The position numbers and the translations under genes were made by a program. The notes beneath the pieces are model-generated. The model did not search any database. It was not told where the DNA came from and saw only the letters and a list, made by a program, of their open reading frames with translations. A stretch of DNA of 64,000 nt, from the NCBI GenBank assembly GCA_964016885.1, contig OZ024741.1, forward strand, positions 200,012,001 to 200,076,000. Direction: 5' to 3'. This stretch comes from Eledone cirrhosa (taxonomy: Eukaryota). Of the stretch, positions 4,635-59,245 are shown in pieces; within the stretch, counting starts at the first letter, position 1, and every line of letters starts with the position of its first letter.

Positions 4635-4673
<39 letters not shown>

Positions 4674-4714
4674 AGAAAACGAAAAATCAGTGATGCATCT
4701 GAACTCAATTTATT

Positions 4715-4802
4715 GTGTTACAATTGTTTCGCCACCGGACAGCTTGAGACGCGATCATTGTGTGGATCTGTCTGATTCTGGACCCGCAGGTTCGACGGAC
4801 AC
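4715..4802 (-). ncRNA. Hammerhead-like ribozyme, variant core CCGUCGA (copy A)
   Basis: GUGU-CCGUCGA-[long stem II]-GUGGC-GAAA-C-AAUU-G-UA-ACAC followed by AAUAAA; stem I GUGU/ACAC, palindromic loop 3. Confidence 0.55.
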
Positions 4803-4834
4803 GTCTAATGATTTCGGAATGCTCCGAAATCATT

Positions 4835-4935
4835 AGATGTGTCCCTGTCCACAGGGGAGTTTTGTACTCTCAGTCGCTTCACGCCATGGAACTGGGTTAA
4901 ACACCAGCCAAATGAGTCTTCTGGCTTAAGACAGA
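4835..4935 (-). mobile_element. Nin-domain SINE fragment
   Basis: Minus strand reads ttaacccagttccatggcgtgaagcgactgagagtacaaaactcccctgtggacaggga, resembling the Nin central domain. Confidence 0.5.
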
Positions 4936-9869: not shown

Positions 9870-9940
9870 TGATGTGTTGGTGTAATGGTAGTACAGTGGT
9901 CTGGATAACCAAAGATGTGGGTTTGACTCCCATGTACGTG
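9870..9940 (+). pseudogene. tRNA-like head (SINE head or tRNA pseudogene)
   Basis: A-box TGGTGTAATGGT and B-box GGTTTGACTCC at tRNA spacing; the acceptor stem is not intact. Confidence 0.45.
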
Positions 9941-10097
9941 TCAATACTCTTCTTTTTCCATTTCTTAGAGGATTCTTAGCCCCACTATCAGGTTAAAATT
10001 TCTTTAGTAAAAAATATAACGAATGCTTCTATTTTCTATTTCTTTTCAAATCATTTTGGTTTATTTATTTCCTATAGAAAGTATGCTGCCTAAACTT

Positions 10098-27366: not shown

Positions 27367-27790
27367 TAATATAAGATCAAAAGATGGTTAAAAGAGTTCC
27401 ATGTATTTTATTATGCACATTTCAAAAACAAATATCATCATGAGATGACATTTGCGTTTTCGTCAGATAAAACAGGGATACATGATATGAAGGTTAAAAA
27501 ACACTTGTGAATAGTGGAGTTCTAAATCAACATATGAAAAGTAATTTAAAATTGATGTGTGATATTGGGAAAAAAAGTGATATTTTCCCAATATTACACA
27601 TCAATCTTAAATTACTTTTCATATGTTGATTTAAAACTCCACTATTCACAAGTGTTTTTTAACCTTCATATCATGTATCCCTGTTTTATCTGACGAAAAC
27701 GCAAATGTCATCTCATGATGATATTTGTTTTTGAAATGCGCATAATAAAATACATGGAACTCTTTTAACCATCTTTTGATCTTATATTAT
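27367..27790. mobile_element. Near-perfect ~205-bp-arm hairpin element next to (TA)n
   Basis: The arms mirror around ~27578 (gggaaaa..ttttccc) with only a few mismatches. Confidence 0.95.
27684..27750 (+). ncRNA. Type I hammerhead ribozyme (mirror copy on the minus strand at ~27406-27472)
   Basis: UUUUAU-CUGACGA-AAACGCAAAUGUCAUC-UCAU-GAUGAUAUUUGUUUUU-GAAA-UGCGCA-UA-AUAAAA; palindromic loop 3 as in PLE minimal HHRs. Confidence 0.85.
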
Positions 27791-28460: not shown

Positions 28461-30462
28461 TTTGATTAAAACAAAGGAGGCCGGACTGGTTATGTTCCTT
28501 TAAAGTTTTATTGTTGCAAAATCACTATATATATTTATCAATGGCCTGGTTATGTAACATCCTGGCGACATCATCAGGTGTGGATTGCATAATTAGTTAA
28601 TCAATAAAAGAATTACAGAGAAAGTTCAGAAAAAATACAGAAAAATATTTAATTCAGGGACGGCCTGTGATCTAGGTATTATCATTGTTGCAGACCATCC
28701 CTGAATAGCAAGCTAGTCAATGCAAAACATTATGGGTTTGTTAGGCTCGACCAGGGTGGGCGTGGGACTAATATGGTGGTGGCATATATCCTGTTTTTAT
28801 AGATACTACTATGCTGATGATAGCTACTCTGACCATAGTGACCAGGGTGGGGGGCTTAGTAATGCATAAAAATACAATGACCAAAACCAACTAAGTGTGA
28901 CGCTGAAGAACATCAGGTTACTGTAGATGTGGCGGTCAGGTTATAAAATGCTTTAAAAATATAATGAAAGTTGGGTGTTAAATAAATGAGCAAAAATGAA
29001 TTAGAAGAATAGATTATGTACAAATTACTTTAAGAAAAAATTATAAATTAAAATTAAAAGAAGGTTAAATTAGAAAACTGTGTAAATTAGGGGTAAGTTT
29101 AGATAAAGTATAGATATTTTCTAGCATGGCTTCAGCTCCTTGGCTGGAATACAAATAAATAAATAAAATGCACCCACACACACACAAGTGCACATATATA
29201 TGTATCTTAGTCTTAGATTCTTCCGCGCCGTTCAGCGCATCGAGCAGTAAGTACTCGCCAGCGGTCACGATCAGTGACAACTTTTTTGAGAACGTGCCAG
29301 GTGATGTTGACTGCCATCAGGTCCTTCCGGAATGTTCGTCACCAGGTGATCCCTGAGCAACCCTGCCTCCGTTTACCGCCAGGCGGAGTCCAGTTCATCG
29401 CTGTTTTCGAATGCCGTTCATTTGGCAGACGCAGAATATGGCCAGCCAGACGGCACCGACGCTCTGTGACCACTCTCTGTAGCGTCCACGACTCGGCTCT
29501 CCGCAGGATCTCCTCGTTTCGCACTTGGTCGCGCCAGGACACACGAAGGATCTTTCGCAGGCACCGCTGGTGAAAAACGTTCAGCCGTCTCTCTATTTTT
29601 GCCGTACTCTTCCAGGTCTCGCTCGCATAAAGCACTGTCGGCAGCACGATGCTCTTGTACAGACGGAGCTTGGTCTTGGTGCTAATGTATATATTATGCT
29701 ATTTATTGCCTATGTTTCATTAAAATAATAAATGTAGTTCTCACTTATAGGTTTGTATTGCAAAAATACTTTATCTAAACTTACCCCTAATTTACACAGT
29801 TTTCTAATTTAAACTTTCGTAATTTTTAATTTATACTTTTCTTAAGGTAGCTAGTACATAATCTGTTCTTCATAATTCATTTTTGTTCATTTAATTAACA
29901 CCCAACTTTCAATGAACTGGGTAATTGCTGGCCTTGTGCCTAAAGTAGAAACAATTATATTTTTTAAACGCTTTATAACATTTTTTTTTACATTTTAGAA
30001 ATTTATAACTGGATCTCCACATCTACAGTAATCTGATCTTCTTCACTGTCACACTTAGTTAGTTTGGGTTAGTGCATCTTCACACTAGACTATGCCCCCT
30101 CCTCTCCCAGTCACTATCGTCAGAATAGCTATCTATGGGATAGTAGTATCTATAAAAACAGTATGTATGTCCCCAATATACTAGCCCAACACCTACCAAA
30201 CCCACAATGGTTTGTATTCACCAGCCTCCCATTTGGGGATTGTCTACAATGATAATACCTAGATTGCAGGCCGTCCATGAATTAAATATTTCTTCTGTAT
30301 TTTTTCAATACTTTCTCTGTTTGTGTATGCCATAATTCCTTTATTGATTAACTAATTCTGTAATCTACACCTGATGATATTGCCAGGATCTAACATAACC
30401 AGGCCATTGAAATATATATAGTGTTTTTGCAACAATCCAGCCTCCTGTCATTTTAATCAAAC
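28461..30462. mobile_element. Large diverged fold-back (arms ~28461-29112 and ~29765-30462) with an HHR motif in each arm
   Basis: The arms are colinear in inverted orientation. + strand HHR at 30367-30424: ACAC-CUGAUGA..GAAA-UAUAUA-UA-GUGU; the mirror at ~28523-28581 has GAUAA in place of GAAA. Confidence 0.85.
29205..29683 (-). mobile_element. Young-looking 5'-truncated RTE LINE inside the fold-back spacer
   Basis: LPTVLYASETW..RLNVFHQRCLRKIL..RLAGHILR; CpG-rich; ends in (CTAAGA)2. Confidence 0.9.
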
Positions 30463-37769: not shown

Positions 37770-38236
37770 ATCATTCCATTTTACATCCGCTTTTTCCCTG
37801 CTTGCAAGGGTGGGATGGGAACTGATTCTGGCTTGATTTCTACAGTTGGATGCCCTTCCTAACACCAACCTCATTTACAGTGAGTGCTGGGTGCTTTTTT
37901 GCCGTGGCACCTACACGTCCACTTTGCAGTGGAATGATAGGGACCCCAGTCATATTACACAGCTACTCCAACATTCACACTACACTCCTTTACCACCAAC
38001 ACACACACATTGCCATCACAGCTTCCATCCCATACCACTTGTTCTTCGTGCACTACACCTAGCCCCTCACCCACTCCAAAACTTCTTCCTCCTCTCGCCA
38101 TTTCTACAGCTGAGTAAACTGGAGCAATGTGAAATAAAGTGTCTTGCACAAGGAAACAACACATCACCCAGTCTGAGAATTGAACTCACAACCTTTCGAT
38201 TGCAAGGCCAATGCTCTAACCACTAAGCCATGTGCC
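37770..38236 (-). mobile_element. tRNA/CORE SINE, long variant with ~150 bp extra internal segment
   Basis: Matches 11452-11788 except for ~37950-38098; that segment recurs inverted at ~38405-38560. Confidence 0.85.
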
Positions 38237-40354: not shown

Positions 40355-40401
<47 letters not shown>

Positions 40402-40764
40402 CGATACTCCCCCACTCTCCCTATATGTGTCCGCATGCGCGCATGCACATACATGTGTGTATATATGCATATGGCTGTGTATGTGTGTGTGTGTTGATAT
40501 GTGTGGGCGAGGGTGTGTGTTGTGTGTGGGCGTGTTCGTGTGTGTATATACATCAATATATATGCGCATGTATACATATGTGTGTGTGTATACATATATA
40601 CAAAGTATTTGTCAGACGAAGAGTGTCTAGCTTTGTATCTCCGTAAGGACTCAACACCACCAACACATCCACCACACCACCACAAACGCCACTACCATAA
40701 ACAACAACACCACAACCACACCCCCACATGCGACAACCCGTCTACCGACAACCCACTAACCTCA

Positions 40765-41320
40765 TACCACAGCCCATCCCAGTAAGCGACCATAACCACC
40801 ATCTCACCATCACATCCACCCCCACATACACTACAGGCCAAGGTCAACCCGCCACCACCACACCACAGCCCATCTCATCCACCGACCGTCACCAACATCT
40901 CACCATCACATCCACCCCCACATACACTACAGGCCAAGGTCAACCCGCCACCACTACACCACAGCCCATCTCATCCACCGACCGTCACCAACATCTCACC
41001 ATCACATCCACCCCCACATACACTACAGGCCAAGGTCAACCCGCCACCACTACACCACAGCCCATCTCATCCACCGACCGTCACCACCATCTCACCATCA
41101 CATCCACCCCCACATACACTACAGGCCAAGGTCAACCCGCCACCACCACACCACAGCCCATCTCATCCACCGACCGTCACCAACATCTCACCATCACATC
41201 CACCCCCACATACACTACAGGCCAAGGTCAACCCGCCACCACCACACCACAGCCCATCTCATCCACCGACCATCACCAACATCTCACCATCACACCCACC
41301 CCCATATACACTACAGGCCA
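40765..41320 (+). repeat. 96-bp C/A-rich minisatellite, ~5.8 near-identical units
   Basis: GGCCAAGGTC recurs at 40836, 40932, 41028, 41124 and 41220. Confidence 0.95.
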
Positions 41321-41430
41321 GTACACCTCCTTGATCCTTCCCACCAATCAAAACAACTCATTTTGTCAAACTCTTGAAACTCTGACTTTACCACATAGCA
41401 TGTATTTCATTTTCTTATAGCATTTTAAGA

Positions 41431-41517
41431 GGGTCCGTCGAGCCGCCGATTATTGAGTCGGGTAGGATCGATACAGATCGAACCTTGAGCTGATCAGTGG
41501 CGAAACGCGCGTCACCT
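41431..41517 (+). ncRNA. Hammerhead-like ribozyme, variant core CCGUCGA (copy B)
   Basis: GGGU-CCGUCGA-GCCGC..GUGGC-GAAA-C-GCGC-G-UC-ACCU, then AAUAAA at 41521. Confidence 0.6.
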
Positions 41518-41689
41518 ATCAATAAATGCAATGAAGGAGTAAATAATCGTCCTTGTTATCCTTTCAATATAATACACTCTGTATAGCTCTACACCTCATC
41601 ACAGAAGTGAACCTAAACATCGAGTGCTCTCCTGGGCGAACCTGCAGTAACTCCAAGTTACACCCCCTGGATATATATATATATATAAT

Positions 41690-54009: not shown

Positions 54010-55884
54010 ATGGCCGAAGCTTCTTCACCAAAATTCGAAGGAGGAAAGGGGAAGATGAACTTACAGCTTCCCCCTGCCACTGTCACAGTAGCAGAGGTCA
54101 AGAAGATAGGTCAGCCAGAGGAAGAATTCTCTCCACCTGTTAACCGACAACTTGACGTTGCCATGGCAACAACCCAAAGAACCAGCAGCAACAGCAACAA
54201 CAACAACAATGCGACGGACGAAAACAACACCAATAACAATAACAATAACAACAACAAGACCAATAACGGTGACAACAACAACAATGATAACAACAACACC
54301 ACCAACGACAACAACAACACAAACAAACAAAATTTCTCCTTCGCCGAGACGACAAGGAAAACCCTCGACTATCTGCCAGTAGATATAACAAAAGCGAAGG
54401 AGCTACTGGCGGATGCGAAAAAATATATAGTGTACGGGGAAAATGGTTCATTCACAATCCATTCCCCCCCGGAACTAAAAAGCCAGAGACTCCTAAACAC
54501 GGTCATATTTAGGACAATCTCGAACAAAAGTAAAAAACCAGCTCAACCATCACAGAGCGAGATAGAGCTGGTTTTAAAAGACGTCATGAAGGACATCACC
54601 TTCATTCAGAAGGATAGACTCTACGGGAGTCTATCCATTCTCATGAAGGACAGGGACACAGCAGTGAAACTGTCCATCAAACCAATCACATCCACCGCAT
54701 ACACCTTCTACCCTACGTACATGGGTAGAAGAACACAAAAAATAAAAATCCACACCATCCTGCCGATTATGGACATATGGTGGGTTTTGACAGGTTTTCT
54801 GGACCTGGAGGATGACATGCTGGTGTCCATGGGAAAGGCATCGGGTGACGCGTTCAGTGGAACGAGCCTCGAACTTGTAGTTCAAATGAGGCCCGAAAGG
54901 ATCGCCCAGATCCCTGAACGCGTCATACTGGATGATCTAACCTTCATCAACATTACCGTTGAGGGTAGACGGCCCTCGTGTTACCTCTGCGGAACCAGAG
55001 GTCACCTGAGGGCTGTCTGTCCCCAACTTAATAAGAAAACCCCAATCCTGCCTACACCACCAACAACTGCACAACCAACACAATCACCACAACTACCACT
55101 ACAAAAACAACCACCACAGCTCAAACCAAAACAAAACAATGTCCAACCCATCCCCTCCACTCAAAAAACAAAAACAATTTCCAAAACACCCGTACCGCAA
55201 ACACAACCCGAAAATATACCCCTCCCCTCCAACGCGGAAGATGACCCTAGTTCGTCGTCAGACGAGGAGGAGCACTTCCACACAATCAAAAGAAAAAAAA
55301 GAAAACACACCTCAGACACACAAATGAAAAAAAACCCTCCCCAAAACATAACACTGACACCAACACAAAAGAGCTCACAACAGCAAACAAAAAACACCAC
55401 ACAAAAACAAAAACATGCATACACATACATAAATACAAGAAACAAAAAACTGTTAAACATTGTGTACAACAACAATCTAATAAAAACACAAGGGCCTAAC
55501 TTCACCCAGGCAGGGGATTTCCCCCACCTCAAAATGATTAAGGCCCCACAGGACACCTATAAAACTTTAAAAAACAATTTTAAAGAGGACGTGGGTCCCC
55601 CCTGCGTCGGGCCCATTAACCGCGTCCTCCTAAAAAACTATCCCACCCCCTCCCCAAACACCCTCACAACTCCAAGCTCCCCAACCACACAACACACTTC
55701 CACAAACCACCACCCCACCCAACAACCCATCCCCCACCCTAATGGAAATTGTGCAGCCCGATACCCGGGACGCAGAGAGGTAAGTGCCTTTTCTCTTCAC
55801 CACCAACATGGCTATGCTAAGAGTAGGCTGTTTAAATGCGCGTGGCCTGGGCTCAACTTGGAAGCAAGCAATGCTTCTAAATGA
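54010..55884 (+). CDS. Tx1 ORF1 (gag-like nucleic-acid-binding protein)
   Basis: 624 aa; SFA motif after a poly-Asn tract, CCHC knuckle CYLCGTRGHLRAVC, P/Q/T-rich linker and basic KRKKRK. Confidence 0.9.
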   Translation: MAEASSPKFEGGKGKMNLQLPPATVTVAEVKKIGQPEEEFSPPVNRQLDVAMATTQRTSSNSNNNNNATDENNTNNNNNNNNKTNNGDNNNNDNNNTTNDNNNTNKQNFSFAETTRKTLDYLPVDITKAKELLADAKKYIVYGENGSFTIHSPPELKSQRLLNTVIFRTISNKSKKPAQPSQSEIELVLKDVMKDITFIQKDRLYGSLSILMKDRDTAVKLSIKPITSTAYTFYPTYMGRRTQKIKIHTILPIMDIWWVLTGFLDLEDDMLVSMGKASGDAFSGTSLELVVQMRPERIAQIPERVILDDLTFINITVEGRRPSCYLCGTRGHLRAVCPQLNKKTPILPTPPTTAQPTQSPQLPLQKQPPQLKPKQNNVQPIPSTQKTKTISKTPVPQTQPENIPLPSNAEDDPSSSSDEEEHFHTIKRKKRKHTSDTQMKKNPPQNITLTPTQKSSQQQTKNTTQKQKHAYTYINTRNKKLLNIVYNNNLIKTQGPNFTQAGDFPHLKMIKAPQDTYKTLKNNFKEDVGPPCVGPINRVLLKNYPTPSPNTLTTPSSPTTQHTSTNHHPTQQPIPHPNGNCAARYPGRREVSAFSLHHQHGYAKSRLFKCAWPGLNLEASNASK

Positions 55885-58800
55885 CCTCAGGTCACAACGT
55901 ATAGATGTGATGGTTATTTGCGAGGCCCGGATCAGCAACGTGCGACAGCTGTCCCCCACCTTTGATGACTTTGAGATGCACGCATCTCTCTGTCAGCCCG
56001 GAGGTGGGGGTGGAGTTGTCGTTCTGCTGCAAAAACATCTGGGTCTCGCAACACAGATGGTACATTTGGACCCGGAGGGTCGACTAGTGGTTCTGGACCT
56101 TGGCAGTGGTAAAGGCGGAGCGTTTAGGTTGGTAGCCGCCTACGGCCCTTTCGGGTCAATGCGGCCGGACTTCTTCCATCGTCTGGAGACTTTTCTAGGG
56201 ACGTCCCGCTCCTTGCTATTAGTGGGGGACTGGAATGGTATCCTAGATGCACGCTGGGACTACGTAGGGGCCTGCCCCGATAGAGAGGGGTGTAATAGCC
56301 TCAAAGGGTTAATCGGTCGATTTGACCTGGCCGATAGATATCGACTAGATTTTCCGACTGCGCCAACCTGGACTTGGGCAAATCGTAGCGGATCATCTAG
56401 GTCGTACCTAGATAGGTTCTTAGTTAGAATTAAGGATAAGGACTTTTTAAGTTGTCCAAAAATGCGCATGGTTGGCTATTCAGACCACAAATTAGTGACC
56501 TGCATGGTCAACCTTGACAGAACTCATAGACAGGGCCCCGGTTACTGGAAGCTCAACTTGTCCTTGCCGGCAAGTAGAGCCTACAGGAATCGGATTAGTA
56601 CGTTAGTTAAGGAACGGTTGACTGGAGCGATCGTCAACAGCAGGTGGTGGGTATCTCTAAAGAGAGAGATTAGAGTAGTCTCGATAGAATTTAGTAAGGT
56701 TCTAGCTGCGGATAGGAATAGGAAGGAAAGGGAGCTAATAGATAGAGTAGAAGAGGCAATTAGAAGCGGCGACGTGGCCAGAGTGCTAGCGTCGAGAACG
56801 GCTTTGAGCCAGTTTTTCGACGCGAAGCACGAAGGCTGCGTTGTCCGAAGTAAAATACGTGCTCTAGGGAACGAGGGGACCAAAGCTGTTAGCTGGGCCC
56901 GCGTGACAGAGGCCAACAGTGGAACTAAATCCACCATCCGGTCTTTGCGAGACCTGGATGGACGGGCGATTCTTGAGCCTAAGCAGATGTGTGAGGCCTT
57001 TCAAAGGCACTTTGCCCGACTGTTCGGGAGGGGCGGGGAGCCGGTTGGGAACGTGGACTTCGGTCCATACCTCGACGGCCTGCCGCGCCTCTCGGACAGG
57101 GAGGCGAAGTCCTGCGAGGAGCCGATTTCGGCCGCTGAGATAGAGGACGTGCTGAGCCAATGCGGCAAACGCAAATCCCCGGGTCTCGATGGTCTTCCTT
57201 ACGAATTATATCTAGCTATGCCGGACTTGTTCCCCGATCTCCTCGAGGCGGTCTACTGCAACTGGCAACAGAACGGGAGAATTCCCTGTACTGTGACCAA
57301 GGGCGTAGTCACGCTAGTGAGGAAGGACGAGAACAAGGGGGACGAAATAAGTAACTTCAGGCCCATAACACTGCTAAATACAGAGTTACAGATTTTGGCC
57401 AAGGTGCTAGCAAAGAGGTTGGCGCTTGTCGTGGGCAACCTGGTGGGAGATGCGCAGACATGCGCTATCCCGTCCAGGTCCATCCATGACAACCTCCACC
57501 TCATGCGATACATCATAGAGAGGGTTGGGAACGAACCCGGCTTTGGTGGGGCTCTGATCAACTTGGATCAATCTAAGGCGTTCGATAGGGTCGACCATGG
57601 TTACCTGGATGCGGTGCTAGCGGCGGCAGGCTTCGGACCCGTTTTCAGGGGCTGGATCACTGCTATGCACAGCAGCCGCATCTGCTCTAGGGTCAAGGTG
57701 AACGGCTACCTCTCGGAGCCGTTCAAAATCGCGCGGTCCATCCGACAAGGGTGCCCTCTCTCCTCCCTTCTGTATGTGTTGACTCTCGAGCCACTACTGC
57801 GGAAGTTGGAGTTGTTGCAGGGCATCCCTTTGGAACCGGGATTGCGGAAAGCGGTGTCAGCCTACGCCGATGACGTGACAGTAATGGTGTCGACGGCCTC
57901 CGAAATCGAGGCGGTCGGCACCTTACTGGAGGAGTACGAAAAGTTCACAGGGGCTAAGCTGAACCGGGACAAGTCGATCGGTTTGCAACTCGGCACGTGG
58001 AGGGGCAGACCGATGCCCTCCGATAGCGTCGTCGGACGCTGGACGGAGGGCCCGGTGAAGTTGCTCGGGGTCTGGTTCGGACCGGACCTCCAGGTGGAGA
58101 AAAACTGGGCGGAGGTTACGAACAGGGTGTTTGCACTGACCCAGAAGTGGGCCAGTTGCAAACTATCCCTGAAAGGTCGGGCGGAGGTGGCGAACACCTA
58201 CATAGCGTCCGTCATCTACTACCGCCTGACCGTAGTGCCCTGCCCAAGGGAAACCCTCACCAAGATGGAGCGCGCGCTCTTCCAATTCCTTTGGAAGAGG
58301 CGGGCTCCTATGGTGAGGAGATCCATCTGCTGTCAACACCCTTCGAAAGGAGGGCTGGGGATGCCGTGGCTAATGATGCGTAAACACGCATTAAGGCTAC
58401 GGCACCTCTACGTATTCCTCACCGGACAACCGGTGTGGGCCTCGTTTGTGAGACGAACCTTTCCCAGACTCGTCTCACTCACCGAGCTGCAATCCTGGGT
58501 CAAGCAAAGACCGAGAAAACTGGGCGCCTGGCACACTGAGTGTGCCCAGGCGCTCACCGCCCTCTGGCAGGCGGATCCGGTTGTCAGTGGAGACTCCACC
58601 GCAACATTCTATAGAGGGCTGGTACGCAACAGGTGCGACGACGCCCTCGGAGAAGCCCTAGACATGGAGGAGGACGAACTGGCTAGCCTGTTCGGTAGGA
58701 CATTCAGCCCGGGACCTATGGACAACTTCCAGAAGTCCCTGGCCTGGCAGTGCTACCGAGGGGCTTTACCCGTTCGAGAAAGGCTCTACAGACACGGGCG

Positions 58801-59245
58801 CCCGGGTAGGGACCCCGCCAAAAAGATCTGTCCCAGATGCGTGTGCGACGAGGAAACCGTTGCACACGCATTAGTACACTGCTCGGGCGTAGCCGATCTG
58901 TGGGGCTATGTCGAACAACTGCTGTCAAGGGTGGGACCGATCCGGCTGACCACCGAGTCTATTGTAATGATCAAGCCGCCTCCCCCCTTCAAAGATGAAG
59001 CAGAGGCGGTGTTTCTGTGCGTAATAGCCATGGCGAAAGAGGTTGTATGGTGGACGCGTCTGAAAGGACTGAGGTCGGGCACCTTTCTCTCTGGCCAACA
59101 ACTCGTCCGTTTCTTCCGATATCATTTCGGAAGAAGGATCAGGATGGAGAGAGAGGTGCTGCACCCCAGCCGTTTCTATGAAAGATGGGTGAAAGTGGCG
59201 AGAATGGCCCGTGTGAATGGGCCTTCACTCTACATCAGACTATAG
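55808..59245 (+). CDS. Tx1 ORF2: AP endonuclease + reverse transcriptase + C-terminal CCHC
   Basis: CLNARGL, GDWNG, SYLDRF, SDHK, GPGYWKLN, KSPGLDGL, NFRPITLLN, LDQSKAFDRV, IRQGCPLS, AYADD, KGGLG and CPRC..ETVAHALVHC. First ATG is at 55808 (the ORF track starts at GTG 55784). Confidence 0.95.
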   Translation: MAMLRVGCLNARGLGSTWKQAMLLNDLRSQRIDVMVICEARISNVRQLSPTFDDFEMHASLCQPGGGGGVVVLLQKHLGLATQMVHLDPEGRLVVLDLGSGKGGAFRLVAAYGPFGSMRPDFFHRLETFLGTSRSLLLVGDWNGILDARWDYVGACPDREGCNSLKGLIGRFDLADRYRLDFPTAPTWTWANRSGSSRSYLDRFLVRIKDKDFLSCPKMRMVGYSDHKLVTCMVNLDRTHRQGPGYWKLNLSLPASRAYRNRISTLVKERLTGAIVNSRWWVSLKREIRVVSIEFSKVLAADRNRKERELIDRVEEAIRSGDVARVLASRTALSQFFDAKHEGCVVRSKIRALGNEGTKAVSWARVTEANSGTKSTIRSLRDLDGRAILEPKQMCEAFQRHFARLFGRGGEPVGNVDFGPYLDGLPRLSDREAKSCEEPISAAEIEDVLSQCGKRKSPGLDGLPYELYLAMPDLFPDLLEAVYCNWQQNGRIPCTVTKGVVTLVRKDENKGDEISNFRPITLLNTELQILAKVLAKRLALVVGNLVGDAQTCAIPSRSIHDNLHLMRYIIERVGNEPGFGGALINLDQSKAFDRVDHGYLDAVLAAAGFGPVFRGWITAMHSSRICSRVKVNGYLSEPFKIARSIRQGCPLSSLLYVLTLEPLLRKLELLQGIPLEPGLRKAVSAYADDVTVMVSTASEIEAVGTLLEEYEKFTGAKLNRDKSIGLQLGTWRGRPMPSDSVVGRWTEGPVKLLGVWFGPDLQVEKNWAEVTNRVFALTQKWASCKLSLKGRAEVANTYIASVIYYRLTVVPCPRETLTKMERALFQFLWKRRAPMVRRSICCQHPSKGGLGMPWLMMRKHALRLRHLYVFLTGQPVWASFVRRTFPRLVSLTELQSWVKQRPRKLGAWHTECAQALTALWQADPVVSGDSTATFYRGLVRNRCDDALGEALDMEEDELASLFGRTFSPGPMDNFQKSLAWQCYRGALPVRERLYRHGRPGRDPAKKICPRCVCDEETVAHALVHCSGVADLWGYVEQLLSRVGPIRLTTESIVMIKPPPPFKDEAEAVFLCVIAMAKEVVWWTRLKGLRSGTFLSGQQLVRFFRYHFGRRIRMEREVLHPSRFYERWVKVARMARVNGPSLYIRL

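Follow-up and report, generated by a model that had tools for sequence, protein, structure and literature searches.

We find that a hammerhead-like motif in the genome of Eledone cirrhosa, at positions 41431–41517 of a 64,000-nt window (the whole stretch of DNA analyzed here), is the hammerhead carried in the pLTRs of a Hydra-type Penelope-like retrotransposon (PLE) that has thousands of genomic copies. Its core box reads CCGUCGA, not CUGANGA. Of the two changes, U4C and A6U, the second arose at least twice, in families A and B separately, each time on a C4 background. Judging from sequence, we regard the motif, with moderate confidence, as a weakened and slow hammerhead that is probably assisted by dimerization or by protein. 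The original prediction had described the fold and the odd core; it recognized neither the PLE pLTR setting nor the stepwise, parallel change of the core.

Structure of the motif and its carrier element

All the predicted parts of a hammerhead (stem I, GAAA, a minimal stem III and the GUC site) are present, as are the core CCGUCGA with C3, G5, G8 and A9 kept and a stem II that, at 60 nt, has the length expected. We use the standard hammerhead numbering; G8 and G12 are the acid and the base of hammerheads. The features in the window are the following.

41431–41517, forward strand: Type I hammerhead-like motif (copy B), subfamily B2y (U4C, A6U)
41431–41434 with 41514–41517, forward strand: stem I, GGGU with ACCU
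41435–41441, forward strand: variant core box CCGUCGA
41442–41501, forward strand: stem II with internal loops; invariant UC/GA pairs lie beside a small internal loop
41502–41505, forward strand: GAAA box
41502–41513, forward strand: GAAA box, 2-bp stem III (C-GCGC-G) and GUC; C17 is 41513, with the predicted cut after 41513
41505–41512, forward strand: 8-nt self-complementary stretch at stem III
41521–41526, forward strand: AATAAA directly 3' of stem I, putative poly(A) signal
40399–41670, forward strand: 5'-truncated family B copy (3' UTR and pLTR end); right end approximate
40766–41320, forward strand: 96-bp 3' UTR unit, 5.8 tandem copies in the B insertion
40356–40398, no strand: (TA)n run left of the B insertion; a second run lies at about 41671–41688
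41514–41670, forward strand: 3' end of the B element (the PLE "tail"); copies end mostly near 41571 or about 41670
4715–4802, reverse strand: hammerhead-like motif (copy A) of sister family A, subfamily A2 (U4C, A6U, G10.1A)
4667–4844, reverse strand: short piece from the 3' end of a family A element; a small inverted stub lies 5' of it, and (TA)n adjoins

With a relaxed hammerhead descriptor, the 64-kb window gave four motifs, whereas 30 shuffles gave 0.6 on average. The three helices of a Type I hammerhead, open at stem I, form around the junction: 87% of 433 cells pair across 15 representative rows (28–38% in slid controls) and 16 of 29 pairs show two-sided change, figures that describe related rows from which the structure itself was derived and do not amount to a significance test. 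Comparison of the subfamilies bears out the proposed covariation, which involves both stem I and stem II as well as the palindrome of loop III. C3, G5, G8, A9, GAAA and U16.1 are invariant in all 15 rows, and C3-G8, G12-A13-A14, A15.1-U16.1 and H17 are in place. The CUGANGA box of a Type I hammerhead is replaced by CCGUCGA as the consensus, with the canonical box in sister subfamilies. The G10.1-C11.1 pair is found in copy B and in 12 of the 15 rows, and is an A.C mismatch in A1, A2 and copy A, a departure absent from the original prediction. A palindromic loop III that would permit a dimer is present, the 8-nt palindromes of the two families differing at four letters. The AATAAA 3' of stem I is shared by family A and several canonical-core families. 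Position and fold match a PLE hammerhead, and it is by fold and setting that the motif would belong to this class of ribozymes.

Left unaided, RNAalifold recovered no more of the fold than 12 pairs in the middle of stem II, eight of them with two-sided changes, and the single strand did not form the hammerhead by itself (z = −0.78 relative to shuffles). The unconstrained best fold mispairs core letters in the consensuses of all eight subfamilies, canonical ones included. As predicted for standard models, no Rfam hammerhead matched the motif at the gathering score; one weak match (16.6 of 34 bits, in a different register), which uses a CUGAUCA inside stem II with G8 replaced by C, was set aside. 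Rfam also missed the canonical-core hammerhead loci tested in this genome. Inspection of the internal loop led us to reject it as a SECIS element or a kink-turn: there is no shared UGA quartet and the register is wrong. Just 5' of stem I, at 41380–41430, a pyrimidine tract and AG resemble a 3' splice site; the position of the AG varies among subfamilies and no spliced joint was seen. The resemblance recalls Drosophila Penelope.

Inverted and direct pairs of the motif, a few kilobases apart, pointed the way to complete elements. L092 and L134 each have an RT-GIY-YIG ORF between two direct repeats that both contain the motif and lie about 4.8 kb from each other, and L132 holds an 859-aa open frame with DKT, YRDD, a CxCX5C linker and VY..YIG, a single ORF in which RT is followed by a C-terminal GIY-YIG, as in the Hydra clade. 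Family A has the same type of ORF upstream of the motif. DKT and CxCX5C occur in both families, and B has RWR where RWK is expected. Further features of the Hydra clade ((TA)n targets, partial tandem pLTRs and inverted 5'-truncated copies) are all present; the canonical hammerhead expected near the 3' end is found in B0 and C and is replaced by a variant in A and B1/B2. The Hydra-type assignment is one of motifs and layout, the RT tree (35 proteins) holding unnamed homologues and three Argonauta hians proteins. In this tree A and B are sisters (100/99), with the young canonical-core family C next (90/91). A and B proteins are 52–61% identical in the RT and 45–49% in the endonuclease region. 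The best named homologues are those of Argonauta hians, and a Pfam search of the family B ORF gave no match.

The window's B insertion belongs to such an element: over 41147–41681 it shares 92.9% identity with the 3' terminus of the complete L134 element. Among 104 3' ends of B copies, 35 lie at 41570–79 and 39 at the end of the query, 41660–69. A non-LTR retrozyme was rejected as the source, since the copies are dispersed 3' ends of an ORF-bearing element and form no short non-coding tandem repeats.

Copy A had been described as a diverged second copy 37 kb away. Its location (36.6 kb) and shared core hold, and so do its changes in stem I (GUGU/ACAC), loop 3 (AAUU) and the middle helix (AGAC/GUCU); it is not, however, a member of one family with copy B, as the two represent large sister families. 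They have in common the core, the GAUC hairpin, GGCGAAAC and the AATAAA that follows, and little else. A first pass gave 1,952 and 1,963 candidates for the two dispersed families, with 40 scored per family. Many family A insertions (L032–L060) are short fold-backs, with two 3' ends head to head just 5' of the core. The arms often carry the same private mutation (in L058, for instance, the GAAA box is broken in each of them), which reflects either a shared template or conversion between arms.

Other elements were also seen. Two more PLE-type hammerheads, with canonical cores, stem II of 31–36 nt and 8-nt palindromes, lie at 27686–27748 (+) and 30367–30424 (+). A decayed PLE of another clade, with a DKS motif and remnants of RT and GIY-YIG, occupies 1–2600 (−); it is not the parent of copy A. 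A 1,155-aa open frame similar to this decayed PLE adjoins a family B ORF at L132:6383–9847. Hydra-type family C (L151–L161, L351–L380) is young and has a canonical core, many open frames of 738–750 aa and about 1,000 ORF-start candidates; it was probably active recently. Four identical 310-bp tandem units at L170:2741–4070 are retrozyme-like, each with a small canonical hammerhead. A LINE at 54010–59245 (+) has an open ORF1 of 624 aa and an ORF2 of 1,153 aa (endonuclease, RT, zinc finger), and a second LINE copy reaches about 61300. Weak tRNA matches just over the Rfam cut-off, at 9871–9941 (+) and 38169–38232 (−), are probably SINE heads.

Core series and the age of stem II

The variant core was predicted to be conserved rather than decayed, and CCGUCGA is indeed the consensus in B2y as well as in A2. 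When the pattern put no condition on the seven core letters, a hand count found CCGTCGA in 80 of 100 B2y copies (the first listed of 316) and in 79 of 100 A2 copies (the first listed of 647). CTGANGA was read in none of these, which led us to reject two chance mutants of a canonical family as an explanation. The non-consensus cores are scattered and mostly CpG-type changes. Genome-wide, the pattern CCGTCGA N40-70 GCGAAAC had 2,148 exact matches, against 51 for a reversed control pattern. No amplified G8-dead subfamily was seen in A2, where G8A (35 copies) and C7U (29 copies) show the symmetry expected of CpG decay after insertion. The variant pattern had no match in the metagenome or viral contigs searched.

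Among subfamilies, the core forms a series from CUGACGA through CCGACGA to CCGUCGA. In pattern searches, the long stem II accompanied a canonical core in B0 and in family E, a more distant relative; in B1, Bt, A0 and A1 it accompanied a core box with just U4C. By hand count, the first 100 listed of 2,312 B-lineage matches comprise 56 C4/U6, 21 C4/A6, 19 U4/A6, 0 U4/U6 and 4 other cores. Subfamily trees were built from about 150 columns with positions 4 and 6 masked, on 65 and 60 random rows (at most 10 or 12 per group) out of 157 and 178 extracted copies. They give a ladder of E, Bt, B0, B1, B2o and B2y, with a B1+B2 clade (99/94) and a separate A clade (100/100) that holds A0, A1 and A2. An ORF tree (1.25 kb, 23 rows) has the same order, with canonical, C4 and earliest U6 elements in a basal polytomy, and its CCGUCGA lineage extends to the youngest, intact copies. 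We infer the two or more origins of A6U from the agreement between the masked-position trees and the ORF tree. Three cautions apply: the CpG context of C4 means that decay may account for some U4 copies, U4 in B0 could be a reversion, and the root of the series depends on family E, represented here by its motif region. Copy ages from short flanks failed to order the subfamilies cleanly (B2y 0.049 vs B0 0.046), and the ORF tree was therefore used for the order.

The confinement of fixed U6 to C4 backgrounds would suit an efficient ribozyme, one in which the two changes offset each other, or contacts from the long stem II rescue them, and which cuts and circularizes the element RNA. A protonated C may substitute for U in a U-turn (PMC4105743), which points the same way. 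We consider this explanation improbable, as stem II predates both core changes, the available part of a published pairwise scan has no positive epistasis within CUGA (PMC9901934), and canonical PLE hammerheads themselves cut slowly (PMC4209133). The idea that the stem II extension compensates for the core changes, raised in the original prediction, fails on the same point: canonical-core B0 and family E carry the same extension. Along the series from B0, 54 of 60 positions of stem II are identical or nearly so. Because canonical-core relatives already have it, stem II cannot be a response to the core changes. The near-constancy of the UC/GA pairs next to the small internal loop suggests a site for docking or for a protein, and the long stem II is probably an older structure, serving as a site for protein or for tertiary docking. 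Long stem II is common among the hammerheads of this genome, with 3,815 matches to one pattern (including L171–L199) in other canonical-core families, whose stem II spans 50–85 nt.

Constraint and cleavage

Over four subfamily steps, 26 of 140 cells changed upstream of the motif, 18 of 242 in stem II and 10 of 202 downstream. The first core box changed in 3 of 28 (U4C once, A6U twice). No change was seen in the 68 cells at C3, G5, C7, G8, A9, GAAA, stem/loop III and H17 (P0 = 0.005 if they changed as fast as stem II, 0.03 if as fast as the downstream segment). The two U6 steps taken by themselves give 0 of 34, which is weak evidence against either rate (P0 = 0.07 and 0.13, respectively). The youngest U6 element differs from the earliest at 50 of 149 fourfold sites and at only 31 of 463 second positions, and the corrected fourfold divergence of 0.445 includes some post-insertion decay. 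The lineage thus kept transposing for about 0.3–0.4 changes per silent site after A6U, while C3, G5, G8, A9, G12-A15.1, U16.1 and the dimer palindrome stayed fixed. This divergence places the 3' end under selection long after A6U. The constraint data are compatible with selection on catalysis and with selection on shape, and structure alone could explain the conservation.

Some features of the core are those of neutral erosion, in which the ribozyme no longer matters and changes recur through mutation bias and hitchhiking in master copies. C4 lies in a CpG, and the change from CG-A-CG to CG-T-CG would result from inversion of a tiny palindrome, a route by which A6U would also require a prior C4. 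Position 4 occurs in both states in several subfamilies, and three fixed core-adjacent changes on C4 are about what branch lengths allow. Yet the other junction letters remained unchanged throughout the divergence that followed A6U, and pair-preserving changes were gained (A-U/G-C in stem II of A1 vs A2, others in stem I of B2o vs B2y). These observations already weaken neutral erosion, which we regard as very improbable.

The strong conservation of stem II (7% change) and of the downstream 50 nt (5%, vs 19% upstream), far beyond that of silent sites, indicates that the whole 3' end is constrained and not the core alone. It agrees with a hammerhead fold that is catalytically dead but retained, either as a platform for binding or folding that serves the RT-endonuclease, or as part of a 3'-end signal. 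Three departures accumulate in A2 (U4C, G10.1A, A6U), and keeping the core unpaired costs more in the three U6 subfamilies (3.9–5.0 kcal/mol) than in the other five (1.8–3.4 kcal/mol). Hammerhead mutants leave insertion unimpaired in vitro (PMC11167929), and Naiad elements thrive without canonical hammerheads (PMC8557442). However, it is the catalytic letters that have not changed, and the fixed changes fall on the same two positions each time, whereas in a dead fold loss of G8, G12, A13 or A14 would be equally expected; the dimer palindrome is also intact in both families. A dead fold, the main rival to our reading, is possible but somewhat doubtful.

We favor instead a weakened, assisted hammerhead, in which two motifs would pair through the 8-nt palindrome and so build stem III, with G8 and G12 still acting as acid and base. 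Loss of the U-turn letters would lower the rate of cutting, and a lower rate may be tolerated or even favored: reverse transcription would start 58–157 nt 3' of the cut site, so that, once the 3' copy is cut, the element would no longer be joined to its start site. Rapid cutting in the 3' repeat would remove that site unless re-ligation turned the RNA into a circle. Among B-type 3' ends, 97 of 104 lie at least 35 nt beyond the predicted cut, and since the copies end downstream of it, most templates were probably uncut. Such 3' ends are reverse-transcription starts on uncut RNA in the Anolis PLE in vitro (PMC11167929). No 5' junction fell within 10 nt of the cut site in 30 B copies or in 30 canonical-core C copies. 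Starts upstream of the cut site were seen in 12 of 30 B and 18 of 30 C copies, and the junction test does not discriminate variant from canonical. Were the ribozyme an efficient one, a circular template would leave no cut-site junction and would explain the tandem copies (PMC4209133).

Published work on hammerhead cores bears on the rate. In a full pairwise scan of a type III hammerhead, single and double mutants of CUGA have low activity except C3G/G8C, with no rescue among the CUGA double mutants in the part of the scan available (PMC9901934); this mutagenesis predicts low activity for a CCGUCGA core and also counts in favor of a dead fold. The U-turn consensus is UNR, with a purine needed at the third place (PMC4105743), and CGU breaks it at both ends, although a protonated C can replace the U (PMC4105743). 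U4C, on the other hand, retains enough activity for viroid infectivity, and a natural A6C hammerhead variant cuts slowly (PMC3088659). A palindrome across stem III lets PLE hammerheads act as dimers, and even canonical ones cut slowly; a circular-template model has also been proposed (PMC4209133). The Anolis PLE hammerhead cuts only with the protein of the element and is dispensable for insertion in vitro (PMC11167929). Counted against a weakened but active hammerhead is the loss of G10.1 in family A in addition to the core changes. Going further, we suggest only tentatively that two lineages independently evolved a C4/U6 core that still cleaves as a dimer or with protein and was selected to stay mostly uncut.

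Relation to known hammerheads and significance

PLE hammerheads, palindromic helix III and single core variants are already known. The pLTR hammerheads of PLEs (Cervera and De la Pena 2014, PMC4209133) are likewise of Type I, with a 2-bp stem III and a palindromic loop; they too have a short stem I and occur in both pLTRs and in many dispersed single and inverted copies. They differ in their CUGANGA core, for which U3-A8 is the sole change described in the part of that source available, and in a stem II of about 6–8 bp, against the 60 nt found here; family A also has A10.1.C11.1. The Hydra clade of C-terminal EN+ PLEs (Craig et al. 2021, PMC8557442), which lists an octopus member, Hydra-1_Obim, shares DKT, CxCX5C, the C-terminal GIY-YIG, (TA)n targets and a hammerhead near the 3' end, with RWK there and RWR here. 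Unlike the present motif, the Hydra hammerheads in table S2 of that paper all have CUGANGA and a short stem II, and the elements are mostly <3 kb, compared with a repeat unit of about 4.8 kb with a long 3' UTR here.

Among natural core variants (Perreault et al. 2011, PMC3088659), U4C (viroid) and A6C (phage) occur singly and with reduced activity; the available portion of that survey describes neither the U4C+A6U double nor how it became fixed in thousands of copies and arose stepwise and in parallel. The Poseidon hammerhead of Anolis carolinensis (PMC11167929) similarly lies upstream of RT starts, with two 3' ends that define a tail; it has a canonical core and no long stem II, belongs to another PLE clade, and its cleavage was measured. 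In the literature searched, we found no report of a CCGUCGA or U4C+A6U hammerhead; Repbase, Dfam and subscription papers could hold such variants. The closest work is reportedly that of Lunse et al. in 2017 on dimeric PLE hammerheads, which could contain such variants.

The finding is of value mainly because it offers a graded series, made by nature, whose final step is repeated. The function of hammerheads in PLEs is in question, as they are nearly universal, poor cutters and dispensable for insertion in vitro. Here, one scaffold carries the canonical core, U4C and U4C+A6U, plus G10.1A, in lineages that are still mobile. Such a series bears on two possibilities: that lineages which stay mobile tend toward weaker cleavage, or that the core tolerates more change than mutagenesis indicates. 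Motifs with a variant core and a 60-nt stem II escape current descriptors, which bears on the PLE clades reported to be without hammerheads. If the parallel weakening of the core is true, this genome would hold a ready-made test of the purpose of Penelope hammerheads.
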